NCBI GenBank assembly: GCA_022563685.1 | Contig: JADFMY010000003.1 | Span: 4,505 to 68,504, forward strand | Length of the DNA: 64,000 nt | Reading direction: 5' to 3' | DNA from: Pseudomonadota bacterium | GTDB lineage: Bacteria > Pseudomonadota > Gammaproteobacteria > GCA-001735895 | Shown: piece by piece, positions 1 to 22,949 of the stretch | Position numbering within the stretch: the first letter of the stretch is position 1 | Layout: the number at the start of each line of letters is the position of its first letter | Translations under genes and position numbers: made by a program | The notes under the pieces: model-generated | Databases searched by the model: none | What the model was told of the DNA's origin: nothing | Seen by the model: the letters and a program-made list of their open reading frames with translations, nothing else

Positions 1-384
1 CAGGGATTCTATTTGCTTCTTTAGCTGGTAGAAACGCATTATAATCTCATCCAGCGCCTGTTCGATATAGTCAGACAAAATAGTGGCGACTACCTTTCGG
101 AAATTTACCCCCAGGTCTTCATACTTTGATCCATCGGAGATAAATATATCGGCAGAGACACGGATGAGTAGCTCGTGAACAACCAGTCTTTCGGGACGAA
201 AGAAAACAAGCTGCTGAATGGGAAGTCCGGTGAAATCACTTAATTCAGCAACGGTTTCAATACTGGAAAACATATTTTCCGGGCGAAAAAGAGTTGAGAG
301 GGGCAAATACTTTGGTGGCAATATAGACTGTATGCCTGGATTCCAGGGGCCCTCATCCATTTCCACTTGTTGCGTGGTAGTCAT
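1..384 (-). CDS. Hypothetical protein, N-terminal part (runs off the window edge); last visible gene of the formyl-CoA cluster
   Basis: Manual translation: open frame from ATG at 384 to base 1 (MTTTQQVEMDEGPWNPGIQSILPPKYLPLSTLFRPEN...RPERLVVHELLIRVSAD...), starting 6 bp after the stop of the PanE-like gene. Absent from the ORF track because it has no stop in the window. Confidence 0.75.
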   Translation of the reverse strand, partial: MTTTQQVEMDEGPWNPGIQSILPPKYLPLSTLFRPENMFSSIETVAELSDFTGLPIQQLVFFRPERLVVHELLIRVSADIFISDGSKYEDLGVNFRKVVATILSDYIEQALDEIIMRFYQLKKQIESL

Positions 385-390
385 TCCAGC

Positions 391-1395
391 TTAGATAGAG
401 CGTTCTTTAATATAAACAGACTCTTGCTGAATTTTTCTATTCAGCAGGCTTGCACAGGCATACAACGCCTTTAACGTTGGTGTTTCAACCCCGGTCATTT
501 CGCCCAGTTCGATGACGACACCGAGCATCCCATCGATTTCAAGCGGCTTACCCGCTTCGACATCCTGCAACATCGAAGTCTTATGCCTGCCGACAACCTC
601 AGCACCTTCAATACGCCTTGCAATTGTCACCCGAAAAGAGGCACCCAGGCGTTCGGCGATCTGTTGCGCTTCGCTCATCATAGTCGTTACGAGATCACGA
701 GTCAGCGGATACTGGCAAATATCAACCAGGGTAGAATGACTCAAAGCACTAATTGGATTAAAGCTAAGATTACCCCAGAGTTTCAGCCAAATTTCAGAGC
801 GGATGTCGGTTAGCACGCGAGATTTGAAACCGGCTTCCGTGAATAGCTCGGACACCATTTTGAGGCGATCTGACTCACTACCATCAAGTTCGCCAACGGG
901 GAAGCGATCACCCTCGACGTGCTCAATCACTCCCGGTTGTGAAATCATCGCCGCCGGATAGGCGACACAGCCAATAATTCGCTTTGGGTCGATACCGTTT
1001 GCGAGCACACCGCCAGGATCGACGGTTTCCACAATACGATTTTCATACTCGCCACCATTTCCCTGAAAATACCACCATGGAATACCGTTCTGCAAGGCTA
1101 CCATTACCGTGTCCGGACCAAACAGGGTTTTTAAATCATCGATAACAGGTGCAATCTGGTGAGCTTTCAGGGCTAGCAATATTACATCCTGGAGCCCACA
1201 CTCGGTCATGTCGTTAGTCGCAAACACATTGCGAACACAGCTTTCTTCACTGTTTTGGCGTAAGCTTAAGCCGTTCTCCTTTATCGCAGCGAGGTGTGGG
1301 CCACGAGCTATCAATGACACTTCGTGTCCTTGTTCGGCGATTCGAACCCCCATGTAGCCACCAATTGCACCAGCACCAACAACACATACTTTCAT
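391..1395 (-). CDS. Ketopantoate reductase (PanE/ApbA) family protein, candidate oxalyl-CoA reductase
   Basis: Rossmann motif VVGAGAIG, LKAHQ, LQNGIPWW, WLKLWGN, TSMLQD..GKPLE. Probable start MKVCVV at 1395. Lies in an operon with frc. Confidence 0.85.
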   Translation of the reverse strand: MKVCVVGAGAIGGYMGVRIAEQGHEVSLIARGPHLAAIKENGLSLRQNSEESCVRNVFATNDMTECGLQDVILLALKAHQIAPVIDDLKTLFGPDTVMVALQNGIPWWYFQGNGGEYENRIVETVDPGGVLANGIDPKRIIGCVAYPAAMISQPGVIEHVEGDRFPVGELDGSESDRLKMVSELFTEAGFKSRVLTDIRSEIWLKLWGNLSFNPISALSHSTLVDICQYPLTRDLVTTMMSEAQQIAERLGASFRVTIARRIEGAEVVGRHKTSMLQDVEAGKPLEIDGMLGVVIELGEMTGVETPTLKALYACASLLNRKIQQESVYIKERSI

Positions 1396-1526
1396 GATAA
1401 AAAGTTCAAATATTACCGGCATTAGGGCCGGTATAATTAATAATAATTCGATTGATTAGGGGAAGAGAATTCGCCCCGCTAAATAATCCCGAAAACTGAG
1501 GAAACAACCCTCCCGGCCAGGCTCTC

Positions 1527-2447
1527 CTAGGTCCCTAACTTCACCCCGGTTTCAAGTCCATTCGATGCCGCGTATTCTGCGGCACTAATCTTGCCTTCCC
1601 CGGCCGGGCGTACCCGCGAAATTAATATACCACCATCATCACCCGCAGATACAAGAATTCCCGCATCGCTTACTTCAGCTACGGTACCGGCTTCTCCGTT
1701 AACCGATTCAGTTTTTCGAGCATCGTATATTTGCACGCTTACACCATCGACAGTGCTCCAGGCTCCTGGCTGAGGATTTGCTGCTCGAATTGTGTTGTAA
1801 ATATCCTGGGCGGATTTACTCCAGTCAATCTCTACCTGTGCTTTACCAAACCAGGATTCATAGCTGCCCTCGTCGAGGTTTTGCGCTTGTTTGGGGGCAG
1901 TGCCCGCTTTAACCAGATCGAGTGATTCAATCATCGCATCTACACCCATAGGGAATAATTTATTGAAGTAGACATCCCCCAGAGTATCGTCTGGCCCTAT
2001 ATCACACTCTTTCTGCATTAAAATTGGGCCTTCGTCCAGCCCTGCATTAGGCCAGAATATCGTTAACCCGGTGCGTGTGGCGCCCATCGCAATCGGCCAG
2101 TTTATCGATGAGGGTCCGCGGTGCATTGGTAATAACGAAGGGTGATATTGAAAGGAGCCAAGCCTGGGGGCATCCAGTACTGACTCGGGTACCAATAACA
2201 AAACGTAAGCCATGATGCAGATATCTGCTTCAAAGGATTGCATCAACTCAAGTGATTCAGGCGTTTTCCATGATGCGGGTTGGTGAACCGGCAAGCCTTT
2301 TTCCAGAGCCAGTTGTTTCAATGGATCTAGTGGTTTACCCTCTTTATCGGGTGCCGTGCAAATTGCAACAATATTTTCACCACGTTCGAGCAGACGTTCG
2401 AGAACCGCTTTCCCAAATGTTTGTTGCCCATGAACTACTATACGCAT
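1527..2447 (-). CDS. Formyltransferase-family protein resembling the N-terminal formyltransferase/hydrolase domain of ALDH1L1 (10-formyl-THF dehydrogenase)
   Basis: YHPSLLPMHRGPSSINW, TIFWPNAGLDEGPILMQKEC, PDDT..VYFNKLFPMG, IDW....IYN.IRA.NP.PGAW. GAGG RBS before the ATG at 2447. Confidence 0.85.
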   Translation of the reverse strand: MRIVVHGQQTFGKAVLERLLERGENIVAICTAPDKEGKPLDPLKQLALEKGLPVHQPASWKTPESLELMQSFEADICIMAYVLLLVPESVLDAPRLGSFQYHPSLLPMHRGPSSINWPIAMGATRTGLTIFWPNAGLDEGPILMQKECDIGPDDTLGDVYFNKLFPMGVDAMIESLDLVKAGTAPKQAQNLDEGSYESWFGKAQVEIDWSKSAQDIYNTIRAANPQPGAWSTVDGVSVQIYDARKTESVNGEAGTVAEVSDAGILVSAGDDGGILISRVRPAGEGKISAAEYAASNGLETGVKLGT

Positions 2448-2472
2448 ATCCACACCTCATTATATTTGTTAG

Positions 2473-3723
2473 CTATACCGCGCCCGATTCCTTTATCTCG
2501 GCAATTTCGTCCACACTATACTCCAGCACTTCAGCCAGGATTTCTTCAGTGTGTTCGCCAAGCAACGGTGAACGAGTGACTTCGACCTCGGTGTCTGAAA
2601 GCTTGATCGGGCACCCAACGGTCAAATAACTTCCGCGTTGCGGATGCTCAACTTCGACGATAGTGCCAGTTTCACGCAATGAGGGTTCCTCGGCAATCTC
2701 TTTCATTGAAAGAATCGGGCCAACCGGAATATCAAGCGGGTTACATATATCCATTACTTCGAATTTGGTTTTAGTCATGGTCCAGGCTTCGATTGCGCCA
2801 AATATCTCGTTTAGCCGAGTCAACCGTGCAGGAGGTGTTGCATAATCCGGATGCTCCTTCCATTCCGGTTTTCCAATAACGCCACAGATTTTCTGCCAGA
2901 CCGCAACCTGGGTAATAAAATAGGTATAAGCATTGGGATCGCTCTCCCAACCCTTGCACTTGAGAATTCGACCGGGTTGCCCGCCACCAGAGTCATTCGC
3001 GGCACGTGGCGTTGCATCGCCAAACTCGATGCCTTCACCGAATTGCGAATATTCCTTGAGTGGGCCGTGTTGAAGTCGTTGCTGATCACGTAGTTTAACC
3101 CGACACAAGTTGAGCACCCCGTCCTGCATTGCCGCGAGTACGCGTTGTCCACGCCCTGTTTTTTCGCGTTGCAGCAAGGCGGCCGTGATACCCAATGCCA
3201 GATTCAAACCAGTTCCGGAATCACCAATCTGGGCTCCAGTTACTATCGGGACATCATCGCGAAAGCCAGTCGTCGATGCTGCCCCACCAACGCACTGTGC
3301 GACGTTTTCATACACCTTACAGTTTTCATAGGGTCCGGGCCCAAATCCTTTGATTGAAGCCATGATCATTCGAGGGTTCAACTCCTGTATACGTTCCCAG
3401 CCAAAACCCATTCGATCGAGCGCTCCAGGCGCAAAATTTTCTACCAGCACATCACACTTTTTCACCAGGCGTTCCAGCACTCGCTTACCGGTTTCGCTTT
3501 TGGAATTGAGTGTCAACGAGCGTTTGTTGTGGTTGAGCATGGTGAAGTAGAGGCTATCGGCGCCTTCCACATCGACTAATTGCTTTCTCGTAGCATCACC
3601 CACCCCCGGGCGTTCTACCTTGATAACATCTGCGCCCAACCAGGCTAATAATTGCGTGCAGGTAGGCCCAGACTGGACGTGTGTGAAGTCCAGTATTCTG
3701 ATGCCATCGAGTGCTTTTGACAT
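2473..3723 (-). CDS. frc: Formyl-CoA transferase (class III CoA transferase)
   Basis: [26 protein letters not shown], catalytic Asp in [14 protein letters not shown] glycine loop, SPLLGEHT. Confidence 0.93.
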
Positions 3724-3810: not shown

Positions 3811-5565
3811 CTACTTATACATCGTCTGCGCCTTGGTTCCTGGCGCGTATTCGTTCGGATCTACCCAGACATTTACGACGGCGCATTTGCCGGTTTTTGC
3901 AATGGCTTCACGGGCTCGTTGCAACGCTGGCTGTATCTCCCTGGCTTCATGGACCTCTTCGCCATAACCGCCGATCATTTCGGCGAATTTGGAGAAAGGC
4001 ACGTCGCCGAGCTTGTTACCGACATTGCCGCGCTCCTGACCATACTTGGCAAGCTGACCATAGCGAATTTGATTCATTGACGAGTTATTGCCAACGACCG
4101 CAAGATAAGGTGCGCCAAAGCGCTGTGCGGTTTCCATATCGAACGAGGTCATTCCAAATGCCCCATCGCCATAGAGACAGATGACCTCCTTGTTCGGGTG
4201 TGCGAGTTTCGCAGCCATCGAAAAACCGGTTCCTACTCCAAGCGAACCGAGTGCGCCCGGGTCCATCCACTGACCTGGATTACGCGGACGAACCGCCTGC
4301 GCCGAAATCGTCACTATGTCGCCACCATCGCCGATATAAATGGTGTCTTCACCCAGGAATTCATTTATCTCCCAGGCCAGCCGGTAAGGGTGGATAGGAT
4401 TTTGATCGCTGGTAAACATCGGCATCAATTTTTCAAGCTTCGTTGCTTCAATATCACCTAGTTCAGCCATCCATTTTTTACGCTCCTGCCGCGCGCCCTG
4501 ATCAGTACGACCCGATGCCGCCTGCTCGACCGCGGCTAAAATTGCACCGGGATCGCCGACCAGACCAAGACTGATACTACGGTTCTTGCCGACCGTCGTA
4601 TAACTTTGATCGATTTGCACCAGGGTGGCGTCTTCGGAAATTCGCTTGCCATATCCCATCCTGAAGTCGAAAGGCGTTCCAACGATCAAAATTACATCGG
4701 CATTTTTGAAAGCATCGCTGCGAGTACGATCAAAGTGGTGCGGATCGCTCTGCGGCAACATACCTCTGCTCGCTCCATTCATATAAGCTGGAATATCGAG
4801 CGCCCGAATAAAGCTGATGGCCGCTTCATGACCCCGCGAAATCCATACCTGCTGACCCAACAGTACCGCTGGTCGTTTAGCTTTTACCAATATATCGGCC
4901 AGTTTTTCTATGTCCGCCGGATCACCGATGGATTTCACCGATGCCCGGTATGAACCCGGCTCGGGAATAACTGCGGTTTCAATTGGAATTTCGCGATCCA
5001 GAATATCCCGTGGAATTTCGAGGTACGAAGGGCCATAGGCGCCATTGAAACACTCACGCGCAGCCATCGACACCATATCGGCAATACGTTCGGTAGAAAA
5101 TACACCCGAGGCAAACTTGGTAATTGGTTTCATCATGTCTACATGCGGAAGATCCTGCAATGAACCCATCTTATGCTGGGCCAGAGAACTTTGCCCGCCG
5201 ATGTGCAGTATTGGGCTTTCAGATCGAAATGCGGTCGCTATGCCGGTCACCGCATTGGTACAGCCCGGGCCAGCTGTGGTGACGACACAACCCAGTTTTC
5301 CTGTTTGGCGCGAGTAGCCATCAGCCGCGTGGGCAGCGGTCTGTTCGTGGCGCACATCGACTATGCGAATGCCTTCGTCAAGACAACCATCGTAGATGTC
5401 GATTATGTGGCCACCGCACAAGGTAAATATTGTATCTACACCTTCTGTCTTAAGCGCCTTAGCCACAAGATGGCCACCAGAGATGACCGAACCATCCTTA
5501 TTTTTTTGTTTTAAGGTGTCACTTGCGGTATCCGATACCGATTTTATGTCTGCACTTGTTGTCAT
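3811..5565 (-). CDS. ThDP-dependent enzyme of the ILVBL/acetolactate-synthase-like type; candidate oxalyl-CoA decarboxylase or 2-hydroxyacyl-CoA lyase
   Basis: FTLCGGHI, catalytic Glu in RHEQ, TAGPG, ThDP motif GDG...NN (YGDGAFG...VGNNSS). Directly upstream of frc. Confidence 0.85.
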   Translation of the reverse strand: MTTSADIKSVSDTASDTLKQKNKDGSVISGGHLVAKALKTEGVDTIFTLCGGHIIDIYDGCLDEGIRIVDVRHEQTAAHAADGYSRQTGKLGCVVTTAGPGCTNAVTGIATAFRSESPILHIGGQSSLAQHKMGSLQDLPHVDMMKPITKFASGVFSTERIADMVSMAARECFNGAYGPSYLEIPRDILDREIPIETAVIPEPGSYRASVKSIGDPADIEKLADILVKAKRPAVLLGQQVWISRGHEAAISFIRALDIPAYMNGASRGMLPQSDPHHFDRTRSDAFKNADVILIVGTPFDFRMGYGKRISEDATLVQIDQSYTTVGKNRSISLGLVGDPGAILAAVEQAASGRTDQGARQERKKWMAELGDIEATKLEKLMPMFTSDQNPIHPYRLAWEINEFLGEDTIYIGDGGDIVTISAQAVRPRNPGQWMDPGALGSLGVGTGFSMAAKLAHPNKEVICLYGDGAFGMTSFDMETAQRFGAPYLAVVGNNSSMNQIRYGQLAKYGQERGNVGNKLGDVPFSKFAEMIGGYGEEVHEAREIQPALQRAREAIAKTGKCAVVNVWVDPNEYAPGTKAQTMYK

Positions 5566-5664: not shown

Positions 5665-6351
5665 TCAATCTAAATAATCGACATATTTATCGACATGTTT
5701 GGCCAATTCGAGCGCATGATCTCTGACCAACTGCTCGGCGTGCGATGAATCCCTTTTCTCGATCGCCTCGATAATTCGAATATGGTCGATAACGGAACGA
5801 GAGATCCGATCTCGTTCCTTTATCGTGCTTGCGCGAATCGCACGCATATGAAAAAACAATTGATCGGACATCTGGGTTATCAAGGTTGATGCCCCCAGTT
5901 TAATAATCGTCTGATGAAACCTGACATTAGTCTCGGAGTATTCATCGATGTGCGCTCTTGCTTCTTCGCTATCGTCAAAAGTCGTAAAATCCCGGCGTAG
6001 GCCTGCGATCTCAGCATCGCTGGCTCGACTCGTTGCCAGCCTCGCAGCCATACTCTCAAGTGCTGCCCAGACATCGATCATATCGAGTATTTCATCCTTC
6101 GTTTTTCGTACCACGAAAGCACCTCTGCGAGCGATGTTCCGCACCAGACCTTCCTGCTCAAGTCTCGATATCGCTTCACGAACCGGGGTTCTGCTTACGC
6201 CGAGGTGCTCGCCCAGAGCCCTTTCATCCAGACGAGGTAGTTCCTGACCCGAGTAAATATCCATTTGACCAATGATCTCCTTCAGCGCCTCGTAGACCCG
6301 TGTTTTGAGTACTTTGGCAGGTTCCAGTGGAACAATATTCAGGTTCTTCAC
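5665..6351 (-). CDS. GntR family (FCD domain) transcriptional regulator
   Basis: wHTH LGVSRTPVREAISRLEQEGLV; FCD metal residues N..FH and DH..I...H. Confidence 0.92.
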   Translation of the reverse strand: MKNLNIVPLEPAKVLKTRVYEALKEIIGQMDIYSGQELPRLDERALGEHLGVSRTPVREAISRLEQEGLVRNIARRGAFVVRKTKDEILDMIDVWAALESMAARLATSRASDAEIAGLRRDFTTFDDSEEARAHIDEYSETNVRFHQTIIKLGASTLITQMSDQLFFHMRAIRASTIKERDRISRSVIDHIRIIEAIEKRDSSHAEQLVRDHALELAKHVDKYVDYLD

Positions 6352-6414: not shown

Positions 6415-7935
6415 CTAGGCCTGTTGCTTACGAAGCTTGTCATAACCCAGCTTAAATAATGGTAAGAATAAAAAAATCAGAGCGGTAATCATGATCGGTC
6501 CCGCGTAGGTACGGGTAAAGAAAATCGCGAATGACCCATCACTGATTAGCAATGATTGCCGCATAGCCGGCTCAGCCAGCGGTCCCAGCACGATCGCCAG
6601 TACAGCAGGCGCCAGGGGGTAATCCAGTTTCCGCATCAGGTACCCGACAATACCAAAAACAACCATCAGCCGGACATCATGCAAATTCTGGGTTGGAGCA
6701 TATCCACCGATCAGGCATAAGATGAAAATGATTGGCGCCAAAATCGTAAACGGGGTCTTGAGTATTTTTATAAATACAGGAATAAAGGCCACATTAATCA
6801 TCACCGCAAACAGATTAGCCGCATACAGGGAAGCGATTAAACCCCACACAAAATCGCTGTGATCTACAAACAACATCGGGCCCGGTTCCAATCCCCAAAT
6901 TACCATTCCACCGAGCAATATCGCTGTGGTCGGGGAACCCGGAATACCCAGGGTCAACATTGGCAGCATCGAGCCAGTACTTGCCGCATTATTAGCCGCC
7001 TCTGGCGCGCACACACCGTCTAACGCACCCTTGCCAAATTTTTCCGGCTCTTTCGACATTTGCTTGGCCATGCCATAGGCCATTAATGAGGCAGGAGTAG
7101 CGCCAGCCGCCGGCAGTATGCCGACAAAATAGCCCAGAAATGACCCCATTAGCATTGATTTCCATTTCGTCATCAGTTCCCGCAAATTGCTCATGGTTCG
7201 TTTTACCGTGACAGTGGCCTCAGACAGCATACTTTTCCCGCCACCGAGAGTGTGTTCCTCAACTGTCCAGAGCATTTCACCGATGCCATAAATTCCAATC
7301 GCTAATACTAAAAAGTTTACTCCGTGTAAAAAACCTGTGATGTCCCATAGAACCAGGCGAGGTTCACCGGAGATAATATCGAAGCCGACTGCACTCAATA
7401 CCAGCCCGATAGAAATTGAGAAAAGAGTCTTAAAAATATCATCGCTACCCAGCCCGACGAAAGTAGCAAAAGCCAGCATCATCAACGCGAATTCCTCGGG
7501 CGCACCAAACACCAGAGCGACATGCGCAAGTGGTGGCGCGAAAAAAGTAAACAGCACAACAGAAATGGAGCCGCCGACAAACGAAGCCATTGCGGCGGCC
7601 GTCAGGGCTTTATCGGCCTGACCTTGCTTGGCCAAAGGCCGGCCATCAAAGGTCGTAGCAACTGCAGTCGATGCCCCGGGTATCCCAAGCATTATCGAAG
7701 AGATAGCGCCGCCATACATAGCGCCGTAATAGATAGCACAAAGAAATATGATGGCCCCGGTTGGTGGAACCAAAAATGTCAGCGGCAAAAGAATAGCCAC
7801 GCCGTTGACCGAGCCCAAACCGGGCATTGCGCCTATAAACAGGCCTAACGCGCAACCTGCGATGATTAACAGCAAATTCTGCGGTTCAAATACGACCGTG
7901 AACCCGCTAGCGAGGAGTCCTAGAGTTTCAAGCAT
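6415..7935 (-). CDS. tctA: Tripartite tricarboxylate transporter large subunit TctA
   Basis: GAMPGLG, YYGAMYGGAISSIMLGIPG, APEAANNA, TLGIPGSPTTA; many TM segments. Confidence 0.93.
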   Translation of the reverse strand: MLETLGLLASGFTVVFEPQNLLLIIAGCALGLFIGAMPGLGSVNGVAILLPLTFLVPPTGAIIFLCAIYYGAMYGGAISSIMLGIPGASTAVATTFDGRPLAKQGQADKALTAAAMASFVGGSISVVLFTFFAPPLAHVALVFGAPEEFALMMLAFATFVGLGSDDIFKTLFSISIGLVLSAVGFDIISGEPRLVLWDITGFLHGVNFLVLAIGIYGIGEMLWTVEEHTLGGGKSMLSEATVTVKRTMSNLRELMTKWKSMLMGSFLGYFVGILPAAGATPASLMAYGMAKQMSKEPEKFGKGALDGVCAPEAANNAASTGSMLPMLTLGIPGSPTTAILLGGMVIWGLEPGPMLFVDHSDFVWGLIASLYAANLFAVMINVAFIPVFIKILKTPFTILAPIIFILCLIGGYAPTQNLHDVRLMVVFGIVGYLMRKLDYPLAPAVLAIVLGPLAEPAMRQSLLISDGSFAIFFTRTYAGPIMITALIFLFLPLFKLGYDKLRKQQA

Positions 7936-7975
7936 ATTCCTGTCTCTTTTTCAGTACCGAGAGGTATTTAAACGT

Positions 7976-8479
7976 CTAAAAAAATATCTTGTAGAGCGGT
8001 ATAAACAGGGGTTCTGTAATCCCTTTCGGAAGAATAATTTTCAGTGTTACTTCGAAAAAATAAAATATAAACATCGGTATTGAAATTGCCAGGGTGGTGG
8101 TAAGCTTCCAGGAGTGTTTACCCATGAATCGAAGGTAAAAAAGCAGGAATAAAGGCAGTGCGCCATAGATTCCGATAAACGAAAATAAACCAACCGTTAC
8201 GATCAATGAGATTGCGACAGCGCCCACATCGACCAGCACATGGGGCTCGATGTAAAGCTTTTCAGAGCTAGCGATCGGGCCGTGTTTTCGAAACCAGTTA
8301 AACAGGATTCCCAGGCAGGAAATCAACATGATGCTTGCCAACCAGAACGGCCATGCGCCACCGCCCGGACCTTCACCGTCTATCCAGCCGATCGGCAGTT
8401 CAGTACTTTTATACATAAGGTAGATGGAGAAGGTCCCCATCATTACGGCCATCAACAATTCAGCAGTCCGAACCGTCAT
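7976..8479 (-). CDS. tctB: Tripartite tricarboxylate transporter small subunit TctB
   Basis: GPGGGAWPFW, about 4 TM segments, C-terminal LPKG; lies between tctC and tctA. Confidence 0.85.
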   Translation of the reverse strand: MTVRTAELLMAVMMGTFSIYLMYKSTELPIGWIDGEGPGGGAWPFWLASIMLISCLGILFNWFRKHGPIASSEKLYIEPHVLVDVGAVAISLIVTVGLFSFIGIYGALPLFLLFYLRFMGKHSWKLTTTLAISIPMFIFYFFEVTLKIILPKGITEPLFIPLYKIFF

Positions 8480-8529
8480 GATTGAGAGCCCTCCATCTAC
8501 ACTGATGTATTAATATTTATGAAATAGTT

Positions 8530-9516
8530 TTACTTAATGGCGCCCATGTCCCTGAGCATTACCTCGTGTATATCGCGCTCAATTTTCCAGTAACTCATCA
8601 AGGCATTGCCAGTTAACAGATCTCCCTGCAAGCTCTTTTTGGTGCGATATTCCTGCCACTTGGCAGAATTGAATACGCGCGTAAAGAGATCAGTGTAATA
8701 AGCCTGCGCTTCTTTGCTCATTCCAGGAGCACCTACGACAGTGCGCTGCATGAAGTATACGAAGTCCTTACCCAATTCTTTAAAAGTGGGTGCATTGGGG
8801 AAGAGTGGTAAACGTTCGGGAGTAAAGGCTGCCAGGGCTTTGGTTATACCCGCTTCATAGAATCCCAACTGTTCCGAGGGGTTATTGACTGTTGAATCAG
8901 CATTCTTACCCGCGAGCTCTTTAGCAACCTTGCCGCCACCCTTGTAAGGTACGTATTTCATCTCCAGCCCGTAGGCAGTGTTAAGAAAATCGGTTAACAG
9001 GTTATCTTCCGAGTTCTTACCGGTACCAGCCATGATCCAATTGCTACCTTTGGCTTTAGCCGCCTTGACAAAGTCAGCCACATTGTTGATGTCCTTACGG
9101 TCGGTATGCACCCACAGCAGGAAGGTGTCTTCGGCCATACGAGCAATTGGTGTAAAGGTAGCGATATCTATACCTAGCGCTGGTTGACGCAATGGTGTTG
9201 TGTAAAAGCTGTTCAGAGTAAACATGATGGTATGGTTATCGCCTGTTTTACCTTTCAGGTGAATCAGGGCTTCGGCGCCAGTTCCACCAGGCTTATTGAT
9301 CGGCGTGAATGGAACCGGTGCCATATTTTCTGATGCAATAATATTTTGCATCAATCTAACGGCCTTATCTGCACCGCCGCCTTTACCAGCCATAACAACA
9401 AATTCAACCGGTTTTATAGGTTCCCAGGCTTGCCCGATAGCTGGCAGACCTGCCAGGATCGCGCTTGCGCCGATAACACAAATCAATTTTTTGAACGTGC
9501 ATTGTGGTTTAAACAT
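8530..9516 (-). CDS. tctC: Tripartite tricarboxylate transporter substrate-binding protein TctC (Bug family)
   Basis: Signal peptide, KPVEFVV..GKGGGAD, NKPGGTGA, YVPYKGGG, PTFKELG. Probable start MFKPQ at 9516. Confidence 0.9.
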   Translation of the reverse strand: MFKPQCTFKKLICVIGASAILAGLPAIGQAWEPIKPVEFVVMAGKGGGADKAVRLMQNIIASENMAPVPFTPINKPGGTGAEALIHLKGKTGDNHTIMFTLNSFYTTPLRQPALGIDIATFTPIARMAEDTFLLWVHTDRKDINNVADFVKAAKAKGSNWIMAGTGKNSEDNLLTDFLNTAYGLEMKYVPYKGGGKVAKELAGKNADSTVNNPSEQLGFYEAGITKALAAFTPERLPLFPNAPTFKELGKDFVYFMQRTVVGAPGMSKEAQAYYTDLFTRVFNSAKWQEYRTKKSLQGDLLTGNALMSYWKIERDIHEVMLRDMGAIK

Positions 9517-9631
9517 TATACGTATCCTCCAATTGTGACAGGTCAGCTTCGACCTAAAAAAAATGCCTCCAACCAATTGCCGGAAACATTACTTCGTCAG
9601 CTCCCCCCTACGAGGTGCCTTTGTACCCTAA

Positions 9632-10395: not shown

Positions 10396-12132
10396 TCAGT
10401 CCCGAATTCTCTCATCATCCGGGTAAACACTAATGCCTGGTACCGTTCCATTCAGGAGTTCATTTTGTATCTCAGTCCAGTATTGGGTACTGAGTAAATT
10501 TGCGTGGCGCCTGGCAAAGAGATCACGAAGTTTTCGTTGGGGGATGCACAACCCGGAGACAAGTTCTTCGGGCAGGAATATGACTCCCTCTTCAAAATAC
10601 CAATCTGGAATATCTTCCTCACCCTCCACGCGATCAAGGTTGGTGCGAATTTTTACCTCGGTTAAATCTTCAAGTGCATCGTAGTCAAACAGATAGACCT
10701 TGGAGAAAGATCCGATGCCGTAATTTCTGGCATCGAGATCCTTGTTGAAAATATTTGCAGACGCGTTGTTTTTAATGCAATAACCAAGATTAGTCATCGC
10801 CGTTTCAGCCTGTTTTTCACTCGCATTTTCAAGGTAAACCGGCAGTGGAGTTATTTTAATCTGGACAATCAGATATTTAAAAATAACATCATCGCCGTGT
10901 AAAGATACTGTCTCAGAGGCGTGTGAGAGCAAGTCCTCAAGCAATTTCGAAGAGAACCACCTTCGATCAAGGCGTACCTTGTAGTAAATGATGCTATCCA
11001 ACATACTTCCTGTACGGTTAATTTCATGGATACGGGTATATTTGCGGATTACCGACTCTAGACCTTTATACTCACCCCACTTATATTTTTCCGTTGGTTT
11101 GTCACGAATAACTTTCAGATTATAGGCAGAGTTTTTCGACGAAAATCCCATGGCAACAGTGCCTTTTGAACCGACGGCAGTTTCCAGGCCTCCATCGGAG
11201 TCAAGCAATTCTGACTCGAGTTCGCTCATTACGGCGACCTTTCCAAGATGGTTATAACCTATCGTGGTGTAGTGCAGTCCTAAGGGACGCCTCGGCATAA
11301 TGCTTTTCAATAACGCACTTACTTCGTGATAGTAAGTAGTAGTCACATGAAAATTCGCCAGCGTCGAGCTAAATATGTTGTGTGCATAGGTCTCACTGGT
11401 TAACACTGCGTCAACAAAAATCCCCGATTTGTCATTGAGTAATGCGATGATCAGTGGTGCGAAACTGTCGTTATCAAAAATCAGTCGTCCTACTAGATAG
11501 GCACCTCGATTTCGATAAAAACCGGCGTTAATTATTTCTACCCGAATCAATCGATTTGCCCGACGTGAGGTCCTTGCAATATTCTCGGCAACACGTTGTG
11601 CAATTCTATGCGCATCATCCTGAATATTTGCGAAACTCGGAGTGAAGTCAGGGATCTTCAATATTTCTAAAACTGTTTCTTCCGATAAATGCCCGTCTAC
11701 CTCGAAACAAACAATCAGCTTCGACAAAAATTCATCCGACGCAGAAATCAATTTAAAAAAAGAGTAATCAGCTGTACGCCATTCACCCTGATAGATTTTA
11801 CGCCGCAGTGAATGTAAATAGGCCCGCCCGATGTCTTCAGCATATTCGCCTTTAATTAATTGCCGGTAATGTAATTCGACTTCCTCCCACTGGTCGATAT
11901 CGATATGTATCTCTGGATAGGCCTGTTTTAAGCGTTCGCTGACATCAATAATGCTGGCGCTATAGAGTGACAACCTGCGTGCGCTGACACGCACCGAGCT
12001 CGCGAAGTCGCGTTTCTCGAAAGCTAATTTTGCCAGATTAAGAATCATTAAAAATTCCCGATAGAAGAGCCTGTATTCCTCATACAGCCAGGTGGACACC
12101 GCCTGAATACGCCGCGATTCTGAATTGCTCAT
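10396..12132 (-). CDS. Divergent isocitrate dehydrogenase kinase/phosphatase (AceK)-like protein
   Basis: 578 aa with GFYRNRGAYLVGR, FSSTLANFHV, YTTIGYNHLGK, LKVIRD (ATP-site Lys), NIFNKDLDARNYG, LFDYD, IFLPEE. Confidence 0.8.
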   Translation of the reverse strand: MSNSESRRIQAVSTWLYEEYRLFYREFLMILNLAKLAFEKRDFASSVRVSARRLSLYSASIIDVSERLKQAYPEIHIDIDQWEEVELHYRQLIKGEYAEDIGRAYLHSLRRKIYQGEWRTADYSFFKLISASDEFLSKLIVCFEVDGHLSEETVLEILKIPDFTPSFANIQDDAHRIAQRVAENIARTSRRANRLIRVEIINAGFYRNRGAYLVGRLIFDNDSFAPLIIALLNDKSGIFVDAVLTSETYAHNIFSSTLANFHVTTTYYHEVSALLKSIMPRRPLGLHYTTIGYNHLGKVAVMSELESELLDSDGGLETAVGSKGTVAMGFSSKNSAYNLKVIRDKPTEKYKWGEYKGLESVIRKYTRIHEINRTGSMLDSIIYYKVRLDRRWFSSKLLEDLLSHASETVSLHGDDVIFKYLIVQIKITPLPVYLENASEKQAETAMTNLGYCIKNNASANIFNKDLDARNYGIGSFSKVYLFDYDALEDLTEVKIRTNLDRVEGEEDIPDWYFEEGVIFLPEELVSGLCIPQRKLRDLFARRHANLLSTQYWTEIQNELLNGTVPGISVYPDDERIRD

Positions 12133-20285: not shown

Positions 20286-22949
20286 ATGGAGTTATATTTC
20301 CTCGCCCTGCTGGTGCTAATCATGGTCATCTCACTGACCTCGGGTTTTCCGGTGGCTTTTTCCCTGCCCGGCTCGGCAATTCTTACCGTAGCGCTGGCCG
20401 CCCTGGCTGGATACCTGTTCGAAGGCAACACCGATGCTTATTTCGTGCTCGGCGGGCCGAACCAGTGGCTAAGCGCGGGGGTCACTAATTTTCGAAGTTT
20501 ATACTGGAATGTCGAACGCGACACCCTGATCGCGATCCCGCTATTCGTATTTATGGGGATCATGCTCCAGCGTTCGAAAATAGCGGAAGATTTGCTCGTC
20601 GCGATGGCGCAGTTATTCGGGCCGGTACCCGGTGGACTTGGAATTTCGGGAGTTTTTGTCGGCGCCCTGCTCGCAGCGACTACCGGCATCGTGGGCGCTA
20701 CCGTAATCGCGATGGGCCTGATTTCACTACCGGCGATGCTGCGCAATAAATATTCCAACTCTCTTGCCTGCGGTACGATTTGCGCCTCGGGCACTCTCGG
20801 GCAGATCATCCCGCCATCGATCGTATTGATAATTCTCGCCGACCAGCTATCCAACGCCTCCGATCAGGCCGCCACCGTACGTAAAGCCGAATTCAAGGAG
20901 GCGACTGGCAGTTTCTCCATGCCTGGAGAATTCGATGTGGTGTCTGCGAGCGCTGGCGACATGTTTATGGGGGCCTTTATACCCGGGATGATTTTAGTCG
21001 GCCTGTATATGGCCTATATCCTGGTATCGGCTATAATAAAACCTGAAAATGCACCGCCGGTTCCCTTTGCAGGAAGCTACGATCGGAAGTTCATCGTAGG
21101 TGTCCTGCTCGCTTTGATACCGCCTCTGGCCCTGATTTTTATGGTACTGGGCTCGATTATTATGGGCGTCGCGACGGTGAATCAGGCGGGTTCTATCGGA
21201 GCGATCGGGGCGATGGTTATGGGCAGTTATCGGCTCATGGAGGGCAAACCGCGAGCTTATTATCCAGCTTTTATTGCGATTATATCAATCGTATCCATCA
21301 TAATACTTCTCAACCTGTTCAGTCTTAATATCAAGAACATCCAGTCCGGATACGATGCTTTTGGAATCGCGCTGGCCCTTATCGCTGTGAGCGCGCTGGT
21401 GTTTGCGATCGGATGGAGTATCTATCGAGCCTTTAAAATTGATAACACGCTGCAAGGCGTGATGATGGAAACGGCCAAGACGACATCGATGGTTTTTATT
21501 ATCCTCATCGGTGCAGCCATGTTGACCTCTGCATTTCGCGGTTTTGGCGGTGAAGAGCTGGTCAAGAGTTACCTGACCAGTTTGCCTGGCGGGTTTTGGA
21601 CCCAGTTTATCGTGGTCATGGCGGTTATATTCTTTCTCGGCTTTTTCCTTGATTTCATCGAAATAGCGGTCGTTGTGGTTCCAATCGTAGCGCCGATTTT
21701 ACTCGCCGACCCAGGCGCGAACATAACTGCAGTCTGGCTCGGCGTAATGATCGGATTGAACATACAAACATCCTTTTTAACCCCGCCTTTTGGCTTCGCC
21801 CTGTTTTATCTGCGAGGTGTCGCGCCGCCCGAAGTCAAGACAATACAAATATACAAGGGCGCAGTCGCGTTTATCGCACTCCAGTTAGTGGGGCTTACCA
21901 TTGCTGGCCTATACCCCAGCCTGGTCAACTATCTGCCTAACAAAATGCATCTGACTTCCGATACCGCACCACCACCAAGCAATCCGAAACTGCAGGAATG
22001 CCTGGAAACTTCAATTTTTGCAGACTACGATTCCAGTCAGGAGATTATTCTCGCCAGTATCGACCAGATTAAATCGGTCAATATTTCTTACCTGCCCGAC
22101 GACTATCAGACATCGCTGGCTGAAAGTTATCGCAATGCTGGGAAATCTTTCATGTTGATCGAACAGGTGCGTGAAGCTTCAGACCGGTTAAACGATTTTA
22201 TTCCAGACTACCGGCCAATTCATGTCGATGTACGAATTAAGCAACGAGAAATAAAACGCATCAACAAAGAAATCGAATTATTTGACGAGGAACGCCTGCG
22301 ATTAGGTTTGGAAGCTAGCCCTCCCGAATCTCGAATCAGGCATATCGCTCGGGAGATTCAGTCACTGGGATCTAAACGTCTGAATATCGAGAGTCAAATT
22401 CCACCAAGCTGGAAGGAATCCCGTAGTCGATTTGAAAATCTGGCATCGACCGAGAAAAAGGCAAGGCTAAAGTATCGCCGTAATGCCGATGAAAGTTATG
22501 AAATAATCGTCACCATGCTGAAAATGCTGGCCGAACACGAAGCACTCCTTTCACTACAGGATAAATTACCCCCCATGCAGGAAATTATTCTGAACCAACC
22601 GGCGGATCAGGCGATGGCATCGCTTAAAGCTCTGGGAAAAGAATTCAATGCGATCACCAATGCCCGGCCGGTCACCTCTAAGCTTTCCAGGGCAAGACGG
22701 GCATTACGCGGTAACAAACCCGACCCGGAAAAGGCCATCGGCGAATTGATGATAGCGATAGAAAGGCTTGAACTGGAAATATCCTGGCGTGGCCGCGCAG
22801 CCAGAGACCTGATGCCGGAACTCCAGGCCTACGAGCAATCGATCAGTCATACCATTGGCATGCGCCTGCAGGAAAGGCTCACCGATGATCAGGCGGAAAG
22901 CATTTCTTCCTGTCTGGCAGTGCATAAAGATATTTCACTATATTTTTAA
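20286..22949 (+). CDS. dctM: TRAP large permease DctM with a long soluble C-terminal extension
   Basis: GFPVAFSL, AIPLFVFMG, ASGTLGQIIPPS, LGFFLDFIEI, SFLTPPFGFALFYLRG, then about 330 hydrophilic residues. Confidence 0.9.
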   Translation: MELYFLALLVLIMVISLTSGFPVAFSLPGSAILTVALAALAGYLFEGNTDAYFVLGGPNQWLSAGVTNFRSLYWNVERDTLIAIPLFVFMGIMLQRSKIAEDLLVAMAQLFGPVPGGLGISGVFVGALLAATTGIVGATVIAMGLISLPAMLRNKYSNSLACGTICASGTLGQIIPPSIVLIILADQLSNASDQAATVRKAEFKEATGSFSMPGEFDVVSASAGDMFMGAFIPGMILVGLYMAYILVSAIIKPENAPPVPFAGSYDRKFIVGVLLALIPPLALIFMVLGSIIMGVATVNQAGSIGAIGAMVMGSYRLMEGKPRAYYPAFIAIISIVSIIILLNLFSLNIKNIQSGYDAFGIALALIAVSALVFAIGWSIYRAFKIDNTLQGVMMETAKTTSMVFIILIGAAMLTSAFRGFGGEELVKSYLTSLPGGFWTQFIVVMAVIFFLGFFLDFIEIAVVVVPIVAPILLADPGANITAVWLGVMIGLNIQTSFLTPPFGFALFYLRGVAPPEVKTIQIYKGAVAFIALQLVGLTIAGLYPSLVNYLPNKMHLTSDTAPPPSNPKLQECLETSIFADYDSSQEIILASIDQIKSVNISYLPDDYQTSLAESYRNAGKSFMLIEQVREASDRLNDFIPDYRPIHVDVRIKQREIKRINKEIELFDEERLRLGLEASPPESRIRHIAREIQSLGSKRLNIESQIPPSWKESRSRFENLASTEKKARLKYRRNADESYEIIVTMLKMLAEHEALLSLQDKLPPMQEIILNQPADQAMASLKALGKEFNAITNARPVTSKLSRARRALRGNKPDPEKAIGELMIAIERLELEISWRGRAARDLMPELQAYEQSISHTIGMRLQERLTDDQAESISSCLAVHKDISLYF

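Follow-up and report, generated by a model that had tools for sequence, protein, structure and literature searches.

A stand-alone formyltransferase of frc operons, related to the ALDH1L1 N-domain, as a candidate link between folate and formyl-CoA

Introduction

What does a lone formyltransferase do directly behind the gene for formyl-CoA transferase? The question is raised by a gene on the reverse strand at positions 1527..2447 of the window, i.e. the whole stretch of 64,000 nucleotides of pseudomonadotal DNA that was analysed. The gene encodes 306 amino acids plus a stop codon, and we call its product FTL, a stand-alone formyltransferase that resembles the N-domain of ALDH1L1 and lacks the Asn of Fmt. 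In ALDH1L1, the formyl group is carried on the 4'-phosphopantetheine arm of a carrier domain (PMC8748788). A first-pass annotation, made from the sequence alone, had proposed that FTL exchanges formyl between formyl-CoA and THF, a reaction then thought to be undescribed, and that this would provide an ATP-free entry into folate metabolism bypassing Fhs and would matter for the origin of ALDH1L1. Holders of near-identical DNA are labelled as marine and sediment metagenomes, and no RNA dataset was among the holders listed.

Residues and family placement

FTL starts with the ATG at 2447, where its relatives begin with MRI or MRV, and a GAGG lies 7 nt 5' of this codon; the program-called ORF begins upstream, with a GTG at 2453. 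The protein comprises the Pfam domains Formyl_trans_N (99.5 bits) and Formyl_trans_C (73.8 bits), and its structure model has a mean pLDDT of 95.6. The motif SFQYHPSLLP covers residues 98-107, and the catalytic triad is placed by alignment at His102-Ser104-Asp138. Gln100, two positions ahead of the catalytic His, occupies the place of the Fmt Asn, in line with the initial reading that the Asn of the N-x-H motif is missing. This position is held by Gln in 95% of the rows of the FTL clade (n=38), by Asn in 36/36 Fmt-type rows and by Ile in 57% of the ALDH1L-type rows (n=7). The tRNA-binding loop of Fmt, which had also been reported as missing, is indeed absent. Fmt binds tRNA by the basic insertion loop PDRPxGRGxK, and FTL, when aligned with the Fmt of its own genome and with another Fmt, shows a 5-residue gap opposite GRGRK and no R-G-R. 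The same gap is common to the ALDH1L-type N-domains in the alignment; residues 32-43 of FTL read APDKEGKPLDPL.

The genome encodes a canonical Fmt elsewhere, which scores 318.7 bits against the Fmt model TIGR00460 and is paired with def, while FTL reaches 171.1 bits and stays below the equivalog cut-off of 201.5. As had been assumed, FTL is thus not an Fmt, a separate def-fmt pair exists, and no def lies near FTL, since the only two def matches of the genome are located on other contigs (C151 and C123).

Among solved structures, the closest relative of FTL by sequence is the ALDH1L1 N-domain 4qpd (199.5 bits), and 1s3i (189.6) and 2bw0 (180.6) also score above the E. coli Fmt 1fmt (173.6), so that the lead of the ALDH1L1 N-domain is moderate and not large. 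A Foldseek search with the FTL model gave the best E-value for the ALDH1L1 N-domain (3e-36, TM 0.89), and Fmt (1fmt, 2fmt) matched at a TM of 0.89-0.94. The fold search therefore fails to separate the ALDH1L1 N-domain (0.89) from Fmt (0.94), and FTL is told apart as ALDH1L1-N-like by features of its sequence only. In a quick tree of formyltransferases, whose deeper nodes are weakly supported, the frc-linked FTL proteins formed a clade with support 97 (38 rows), and the Fmt proteins, as a clade of 33 rows with support 99, stood apart from the assemblage of FTL and ALDH1L. FTL thus appears to group with the ALDH1L N-domains rather than with Fmt, and the early view that it tracks the ALDH1L1 N-domain agrees with the PDB ranking, the tree and the absent Asn. 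Its bearing on the origin of ALDH1L1 is weaker than claimed, because in this quick tree the frc-linked clade does not include the ALDH1L N-domains (7 rows, support 100) and other bacterial proteins are closer to the latter than this clade is.

FTL and the ALDH1L1 N-domain have two subdomains, the His-Ser-Asp triad, the missing Asn before the His and a short loop in common, and the identity of FTL to ALDH1L-type proteins is 35-39%. Unlike ALDH1L1, FTL has neither a carrier (PP-binding) nor an aldehyde dehydrogenase domain on its chain; ALDH1L-type proteins in the database possess an Aldedh domain with or without PP-binding. The two-domain fold and the SLLP folate motif are shared with Fmt, from which FTL differs by the Gln that replaces the invariant Asn, by the missing tRNA loop, by its separate clade and by the lack of a def neighbour.

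The frc operon and its relatives

The gene preceding FTL is frc (2473..3723, reverse strand, 416 amino acids), encoding a formyl-CoA transferase that exceeds the curated cut-offs of NF003809 (715.1 vs. 442 bits) and TIGR03253 (696.8 vs. 504.2 bits). The gap between both genes, read from the sequence, spans 25 bp (2448..2472, reverse strand), exactly the distance first given between the frc stop and FTL. Next in the row is a ThDP enzyme of the HACL/Oxc superfamily with three TPP domains (3811..5565, reverse strand, 584 amino acids), here termed type A. It stays below the cut-offs for Oxc (217.8 vs. 739.4 and 238.6 vs. 557 bits), for the HACL model (360.3 vs. 600) and for PRK05858 (451.5 vs. 587), and its best PDB match is the 2-hydroxyacyl-CoA lyase 7pt3 (273.5 bits, compared to 157.5 for Oxc 2c31). 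Judged by these scores, the enzyme is HACL/Oxc-like and not a canonical Oxc, and it presumably makes formyl-CoA. At a completeness of 92%, the genome yielded no further Oxc. A regulator of the GntR/FCD family (5665..6351, reverse strand; Pfam GntR and FCD) heads the gene row, and its position is conserved in related loci. Directly after FTL follows a PanE/ApbA-family reductase (391..1422, reverse strand, 343 amino acids; 447 bits with NF005089, cut-off 223; 221.6 bits with PDB 3ghy), a candidate oxalyl-CoA or 2-oxoacid reductase. According to tblastn, most related loci share three further ORFs of the same strand (6415..9576) in synteny; from the look of their sequences we take them to be TctA (6415-7935), TctB (7976-8479) and TctC (8530-9576) of a tripartite tricarboxylate-type transporter. 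Gaps within the core operon are 25 bp and 104 bp here, and the median distance between frc and FTL in related loci is about 57 bp. A promoter scan found fewer promoter-like sites than shuffled sequences contain, and a terminator scan gave a count within about 2 SD of shuffles, with none in the two gaps flanking FTL, which is weak evidence.

In related loci, frc directly precedes FTL, in the same orientation, in 71 of the 77 cases with at least 1300 bp of upstream DNA (tblastn), and the strong linkage to formyl-CoA genes, which the first-pass annotation had predicted for FTL homologues, persists down to 44% identity. These loci are kin, picked by their likeness to the FTL query, so that the counts overstate independence. 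Among the carriers are the cultured strains Paracoccus albicereus TK19116 and Filomicrobium insigne CGMCC 1.6497. The ThDP partner in the same operon slot is of type A in 42 loci and a canonical Oxc in 25, and it is formyl-CoA that these partners from two different families share, which argues for a linkage to formyl-CoA. The PanE-like reductase is present in 21/31 type-A loci but in 0/17 Oxc loci (counted where the downstream DNA reaches 5 kb or more). Type-A loci also have genes for isocitrate lyase, AceK and malic enzyme in their vicinity, and sucC/sucD-like genes occur in some related loci.

Co-occurrence was analysed in 400 other, evenly drawn Pseudomonadota genomes, with FTL carriers defined at E <= 1e-55. 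Frc exceeded its cut-off in 21/400 genomes overall and in 7/7 of the FTL carriers (7/400), and it adjoins FTL in five of these seven. FTL was absent from 14 of the 21 Frc-positive genomes and can therefore be regarded as an accessory. Four proteins in which Frc and FTL are joined (P0309, P0313, P0328, P0334) were left uncounted; their CoA-transferase domain is incomplete (Pfam, applied to all but P0334, recovers no more than its C-terminal third to half), and they may be gene-calling artefacts. A eukaryotic transcript from a single assembly (P0314) joins FTL to an Oxc-type enzyme with 44% identity to canonical Oxc and is only a lead.

Connection to folate

A link to folate is independently shown by the adjacency of fhs and by in-frame Fhs fusions. 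Fhs is encoded directly downstream of FTL in 46 of the 65 loci with at least 1900 bp of downstream DNA (tblastn). Among the 64 longer FTL relatives in the database, 48 have FTHFS on the same polypeptide, and at least 44 database relatives (44/64 of the longer ones) contain the motifs of FTL and Fhs in order and in frame. The linkers are variable and rich in Pro, Ala, Lys and Ser, and neither half was truncated in the three fusions that were examined. These fusions are known from database proteins, since no fused locus occurred in the scanned DNA, where FTL and Fhs are separate frames in 14/14 metagenome and 87/87 genome loci. FTL directly precedes fhs in 14 of 80 metagenome loci, which were picked by likeness to one FTL-Fhs fusion protein and mostly to its Fhs half; Frc was seen in all ten of those 14 that have any upstream DNA.

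The gene after FTL in the window is the PanE-like reductase and not fhs, and fhs lies on another contig of this genome; the possible absence of fhs, which had been considered at first, can thus be discarded. Three of the seven sampled carriers (G238, G298, G256) show no fhs match, so FTL needs no Fhs. Another genome (G200) has frc adjoining fhs and no FTL, and Fhs is therefore linked to Frc on its own account. Since enzymes that are fused commonly catalyse successive steps, a continuous path connecting formate with formyl-CoA seems favoured over a pair of enzymes with a shared product.

Reaction, precedents and direction

From family placement, residues, synteny, fusions and co-occurrence we infer substrates, reaction and direction. 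FTL probably catalyses the reversible reaction 10-formyl-THF + CoA-SH <-> THF + formyl-CoA, in either direction. It would then stand with the ALDH1L1 N-domain, though as a lone protein, among those Fmt-fold formyltransferases whose acceptor is a thiol, and His102-Ser104-Asp138 would act on the thiol of pantetheine, in the way suggested for ALDH1L1 and HypX; a His-Ser-Asp mechanism with a thiolate is given in PMC6802093. The acceptor is a pantetheine thiol in ALDH1L1 (PMC8748788) and would be free CoA in FTL. The formyl exchange between formyl-CoA and THF that had been put forward for this locus is therefore strengthened by family, linkage and the folate link, while its undescribed status does not stand and the bypass of Fhs is weakened.

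The reaction is already in print. LctF was reported in 2025 to transfer formyl from 10-formyl-THF to CoA in vitro, giving formyl-CoA (PMC11730586), and the same transfer was proposed in 2019 for the N-domain of HypX, which has the same fold (PMC6802093). LctF of Streptomyces lactacystinicus is described as a stand-alone Fmt-like enzyme, with the reaction that we propose for FTL. It belongs to a PKS/NRPS natural-product cluster, whereas FTL is encoded in a catabolic operon, and the two are likened by reaction and not by sequence. The HypX N-domain (6j0p and related entries) is a remote relative of FTL (41.9 bits, TM 0.70, 18% identity) with an altered triad, Asp replacing the Ser that FTL keeps. 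Unlike FTL, it shares its chain with a crotonase-like decarbonylase, and it serves CO synthesis for hydrogenase. Both LctF and HypX run opposite to the direction of the first-pass annotation. A counterpart by role is YfdE, the acetyl-CoA:oxalate CoA-transferase of E. coli, which primes the cycle within the frc/oxc operon (PMC3720670). Like FTL, YfdE is an accessory in such an operon, and priming when formyl-CoA is lacking is also the favoured reading for FTL; however, YfdE has a class III CoA-transferase fold and uses acetyl-CoA, not folate. Matches to YfdE (NF008511) above the cut-off were found in 0/401 sampled genomes. In literature searches we found no paper on the FTL family in oxalate operons, and a term search of a 2024 oxalotrophy review (PMC13409138) gave no mention of it either.

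Regarding direction, stoichiometric reasoning leads us to favour formate -> 10-formyl-THF -> formyl-CoA as the main net flow, a tentative choice at slightly less than an even chance. The module would consist of the regulator, a ThDP enzyme (Oxc or HACL-like), Frc, FTL and usually Fhs. FTL and Fhs, separate proteins here and a single polypeptide of about 880 amino acids in many bacteria, would together convert formate and formyl-CoA into each other in two steps via folate, at the cost or gain of one ATP. In the favoured direction the net reaction would be formate + ATP + CoA -> formyl-CoA + ADP + Pi, with THF as catalytic carrier. It is conceivable, with somewhat more reserve, that FTL and Fhs constitute a natural folate-mediated, ADP-forming formyl-CoA synthetase that starts and refills the formyl-CoA/oxalyl-CoA cycle by which marine and soil Proteobacteria break down oxalate or 2-hydroxyacids. 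Such a route would start the Frc/ThDP cycle, which is unable to run without a first acyl-CoA, and would refill it after hydrolysis of formyl-CoA or withdrawal of oxalyl-CoA, e.g. by the PanE-like reductase.

The same reaction might have the opposite net flow, formyl-CoA + THF -> 10-formyl-THF + CoA, which would be an ATP-free folate entry from the breakdown of oxalate or 2-hydroxyacids. Everything that supports the reaction as such counts here too, and this flow is downhill, since making formyl-CoA out of 10-formyl-THF requires energy under standard conditions. Without it, the three of seven sampled carriers with no fhs match would have no way from oxalate or 2-hydroxyacids to 10-formyl-THF, and the sucC/sucD-like genes of some loci could give another CoA donor. 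Nevertheless, we consider it unlikely, as it would drain the CoA donor needed by Frc and bring no real saving unless another thioester is spent. Moreover, relatives usually have Fhs encoded next, often as a fusion, a fusion of enzymes sharing only a product would be unusual, and fhs is present in this genome, all of which weakens the ATP-free bypass of Fhs as originally envisaged.

It is improbable that the two enzymes conserve surplus thioester energy by running formyl-CoA -> 10-formyl-THF -> formate + ATP, with Fhs reversed. The FTL-Fhs fusions would join consecutive steps in this case as well, and a surplus could arise if oxalyl-CoA or 2-hydroxyacyl-CoA were made without Frc; the PanE-like dehydrogenase of type-A loci and the nearby isocitrate lyase, AceK and malic enzyme also count in favour of this reading. 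With about +5 kJ/mol at 1 mM, reverse Fhs operates close to equilibrium, and an association with ATP gain is described for one purine fermenter (PMC8085960). On the other hand, Frc is the most constant partner of FTL (71/77) and as the activator would leave no spare formyl-CoA, and we identified no Frc-independent source of oxalyl-CoA.

Slightly less probable still is a formyl transfer to the 4'-phosphopantetheine of a carrier protein, to another thiol or to an amine. The natural acceptor of ALDH1L1 is the arm of its carrier domain (PMC8748788), and we infer that of FTL. However, the short gaps in the core operon speak against it, no PP-binding domain occurs in the annotated conserved neighbour families (ORFs of at least 90 amino acids), and the Asn of amine-type enzymes is absent from FTL. 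That FTL hydrolyses 10-formyl-THF, similar to PurU, or formyl-CoA is very improbable. The isolated ALDH1L1 N-domain does hydrolyse 10-formyl-THF in vitro, but only with added thiols at high, non-physiological levels (PMC8748788); next to Fhs, or fused with it, a hydrolase would only waste ATP in a futile cycle, and its linkage to Frc would be left unexplained. A second Met-tRNA formyltransferase, as relatives are named in public annotation and as the fold match to Fmt at TM 0.94 would allow, is hardly credible for a protein under the Fmt cut-off, with neither Asn nor tRNA loop, outside the Fmt clade, conserved in frc operons and accompanied by a canonical def-fmt pair in the genome.

Implications

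If FTL indeed connects formate via 10-formyl-THF to formyl-CoA, the labels of its family, 'methionyl-tRNA formyltransferase' and, for the fused forms, 'formate-tetrahydrofolate ligase', would be wrong. This would concern a large and widespread family, with at least 8000 candidates in a database word-index search, and the Fmt-fold branch with a thiol acceptor, familiar from ALDH1L1, would be broad in bacteria. One-carbon pathways based on formyl-CoA could profit from an ADP-forming route that starts from formate and spends one ATP. For oxalate breakdown, FTL would be a missing piece, the source of the first formyl-CoA for the Frc/Oxc cycle, and would explain how the cycle is replenished after loss of oxalyl-CoA to assimilation, a task of the unrelated YfdE in E. 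coli. FTL would thereby link oxalate breakdown with one-carbon metabolism.

Sequence and fold of the formyltransferase

The stand-alone formyltransferase, here called FTL, is a 306-aa ORF at 1527..2447 on the minus strand. It starts at the ATG at 2447, the start common to its relatives, with a GAGG 7 nt 5' of it and 25 bp after the stop codon of the upstream gene frc, which encodes formyl-CoA transferase (Frc). Pfam assigns Formyl_trans_N (99.5 bits, residues 1-160) and Formyl_trans_C (73.8 bits, residues 202-295), and the curated model for Met-tRNA formyltransferase (Fmt) gives 171.1 bits, under its cut-off of 201.5. Compared by sequence with solved structures, FTL matches ALDH1L1 N-domains best (4qpd 199.5, 1s3i 189.6, 2bw0 180.6 bits), followed by E. 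coli Fmt (173.6 bits), ArnA (about 100 bits) and HypX (41.9 bits). A structure model derived from 34 relatives (mean pLDDT 95.6) also ranked 4qpd first in Foldseek (E 3e-36, TM 0.89), with a poorer fit to HypX (TM 0.70). Since Fmt structures fit the model equally well (up to TM 0.94), the fold does not separate ALDH1L1-N from Fmt; sequence features, unlike the fold, do.

In an alignment of FTL with relatives, ALDH1L-type database proteins and the source genome's own Fmt, FTL retains His102, Ser104 and Asp138. The ALDH1L1 domain has the same His-Ser-Asp triad, in which Asp activates the pantetheine thiol (PMC6802093). Two residues N-terminal of the catalytic His sits Gln100, a position held by Gln in 95% of the FTL clade (38 rows), by Asn in 36/36 Fmt-type sequences and by Ile in 57% of ALDH1L-type ones (7 rows), and both FTL and ALDH1L have a 5-residue gap where Fmt has PDRPAGRGRK. 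Because of this split and this gap, the motifs by which the first-pass annotation set FTL apart are real and discriminating.

The 99 rows of a quickly built maximum-likelihood tree were 19 sequences from loci, six N-domains of ALDH1L, the Fmt of the source genome and database representatives of 290-335 aa, shorter or longer ones being left out. The tree contains an Fmt clade (33 rows, support 99) and, separate from it, an assemblage of forms without the Asn, inside which lies the frc-linked clade (38 rows, support 97). The ALDH1L N-domains form a group of their own (7 rows, support 100) that joins other bacterial proteins (P0137, P0186, P0220) more closely (support 90). All these groupings are provisional because the tree is unrooted and its deep nodes are weak.

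Genomic context

FTL is part of a row of minus-strand genes with a GntR/FCD regulator (5665-6351), a ThDP enzyme (3811-5565), frc (2473-3723, over the cut-offs of both curated Frc models) and a PanE-family reductase (391-1422); Tct-type transporter genes lie upstream (6415-9576, minus strand). The ThDP enzyme scores below the Oxc model cut-offs, and its top solved relatives are 2-hydroxyacyl-CoA lyases (7pt3, 273.5 bits), above Oxc (2q27 178.8, 2c31 157.5 bits); we refer to it as type A. A gene for AceK (isocitrate dehydrogenase kinase/phosphatase; 10396-12132, minus strand) adjoins the transporter genes, and AceK, isocitrate lyase and malic enzyme are close by in related type-A loci (L023-L043). 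An unusually long DctM-type TRAP component (20286-22949, plus strand; 887 aa, three matched stretches) is accompanied by DctP- and DctQ-like genes. Next to the PanE gene on its 3' side is a conserved, roughly 600-aa ORF (1-384, minus strand, extending into G000:C23 upstream; locus L113 3083-4600) with no Pfam match. Over 128 aa it shares 63% identity with L006:10078-11874; the ORF turns up again in 12 loci, and its look-alikes in the protein atlas carry the automatic name 'zeta toxin family' P-loop proteins.

The source assembly (201 contigs, 92% complete) contains four Formyl_trans_N genes. As the first-pass annotation anticipated, FTL is not the sole fmt-like gene, a canonical def-fmt pair being located on contig C151 (def 178.6, fmt 318.7 bits). 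The same annotation had raised a possible absence of fhs, the gene for formate-THF ligase (Fhs); it is present (604.9 bits), but contig C143 ends within it. In this 92%-complete genome no canonical Oxc turned up, the best match being the ThDP enzyme of the window itself. Elsewhere (G000:C123:9906-11092; loci L004, L088, L091), a second def gene (166.4 bits) precedes a short frame with Formyl_trans_N alone (81.8-84.1 bits), and the longer match has one TAG inside it.

A scan for FTL relatives, with one genome per species, gave 266 encoding stretches, of which the best 80 (54-86% identity) were used; these are from Alpha- and Gammaproteobacteria, mainly uncultured, and include Paracoccus albicereus and Filomicrobium insigne. 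By tblastn, of the 77 loci with at least 1300 bp upstream, 71 have Frc immediately upstream in the same orientation, and two more carry it elsewhere in the locus. Because these loci share ancestry and were selected for similarity to the query, none of the counts drawn from them represent independent events. Of the ThDP genes, 42 are type A and 25 are canonical Oxc, another ThDP family in the same operon slot (three examples: 845-995 bits on the Oxc model, far above cut-off); none was seen in 13 loci, some of them short. Fhs (892.6 bits on Pfam FTHFS) directly follows FTL in 46 of 65 loci with at least 1900 bp downstream (25/35 type-A, 17/20 Oxc), and some Oxc loci have NAD-type formate dehydrogenase subunits 3' of fhs. 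Among those of loci L005-L084 with at least 5 kb downstream, a PanE-like gene occurs in 21/31 type-A versus 0/17 Oxc loci; the type-A enzyme and PanE reductase may serve a substrate other than oxalate or an added oxalyl-CoA reductase branch. Two Hyphomicrobiaceae loci carry a Uma2-family endonuclease gene between frc and FTL (L042 7369-7929; L051 7326-7925).

In a less biased sample of 400 other, evenly drawn Pseudomonadota genomes, FTL (E <= 1e-55) was present in seven, at 44-53% identity. Frc exceeded its cut-off in all seven carriers versus 21/400 overall and adjoins FTL in five; in G256, FTL shares its contig with oxc and frc, some 8 kb away, and in G395 FTL is directly 3' of fhs, with frc on a different contig. 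Together with the upstream Frc of the related loci, this bears out the proposed linkage to formyl-CoA genes. Fhs was found in 80/400 genomes and in four of the seven carriers, and not in carriers G238, G298 and G256. Genome G200, with no FTL match at E <= 1e-55, has frc directly followed by fhs after a 261-bp gap (G200:C1:1747457-1750617), showing that the Fhs-Frc linkage does not depend on FTL. On these counts, about one in three Frc-bearing genomes of the sample has FTL, which makes it an accessory, and it does not strictly require Fhs.

Fusions with formate-THF ligase

A search for longer proteins returned 64 FTL relatives, of which 48 also contain FTHFS in one polypeptide; identity to the window's FTL is 61-71% for the top 38. 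In the three fusions checked, Pfam finds both halves whole (P0285: formyltransferase 1-291, FTHFS 324-878 across the entire profile, 927 bits), and the catalytic His motif precedes the FTHFS P-loop in 44/64. The linkers are rich in Pro, Ala, Lys and Ser, vary in sequence and length, and are in frame every time. Some clusters represent many contigs (21 for P0285, the longest 623 kb). The fusions are known here as database proteins only, with no fused gene in 87 genome loci or 14 metagenome loci bearing FTL. Those 14 come from 80 metagenome loci picked by likeness to P0285, matching chiefly its Fhs half, and have FTL directly before fhs (gaps 21-163 bp), with Frc in all ten that include any upstream DNA.

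Other domain combinations also occur. The 920-aa protein P0314, from a eukaryote transcriptome, combines an FTL-type formyltransferase (residues 12-291) with a complete ThDP enzyme that has 44% identity to canonical Oxc; this single assembly could be a chimera. In P0315 and P0323 (664-684 aa), a cation-efflux (CDF) transporter domain is linked to an FTL-type formyltransferase (45-48% identity to FTL), a composition confirmed by Pfam for P0315 and possibly a gene-calling fusion.

Proposed reaction and direction

The simplest fitting reaction, which FTL probably catalyses, would be 10-formyl-THF + CoA <-> THF + formyl-CoA, because two independent lines of context and the family branch converge on it. 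FTL accompanies Frc and one or other of two ThDP families, enzymes whose sole common metabolite is formyl-CoA; Fhs, the maker of 10-formyl-THF, is likewise a companion of FTL and often its fusion partner. The known member of its fold branch hands formyl to a pantetheine thiol (PMC8748788).

The Frc/ThDP cycle remakes its own formyl-CoA, but needs a first molecule to start and loses one with each formyl-CoA hydrolysis or oxalyl-CoA withdrawal. In E. coli, this need is met by YfdE, whose gene belongs to the frc/oxc operon (PMC3720670). Fhs and FTL would convert formate, the cycle's own product, to formyl-CoA for one ATP, and with Frc the sum would be oxalate + ATP + CoA -> oxalyl-CoA + ADP + Pi. 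This net flow from formate to formyl-CoA draws on all genes of the row and suits a fusion of consecutive steps, and we tentatively favour it. Formyl transfer from formyl-CoA to folate is energetically downhill, and such capture, proposed in the first-pass annotation as an ATP-free entry bypassing Fhs, would suit carriers without fhs; it would, however, drain the CoA donor of Frc and fits the FTL-Fhs fusions oddly, and we regard it as unlikely. An ATP harvest by Fhs in reverse, a reaction near equilibrium (PMC8085960), is more doubtful still, being possible only with formyl-CoA in surplus.

The first-pass annotation presented this reaction as not known to be described, which does not hold: the chemistry is not new, as formation of formyl-CoA from 10-formyl-THF and CoA has been demonstrated for LctF (PMC11730586) and proposed for HypX (PMC6802093). 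The reaction of LctF is the one proposed here for FTL. Literature searches and a term search of a 2024 oxalotrophy review, as far as these sources extend, returned no account of the FTL family. The family itself, its occurrence within a catabolic operon and the way it pairs and fuses with Fhs seem to be new.
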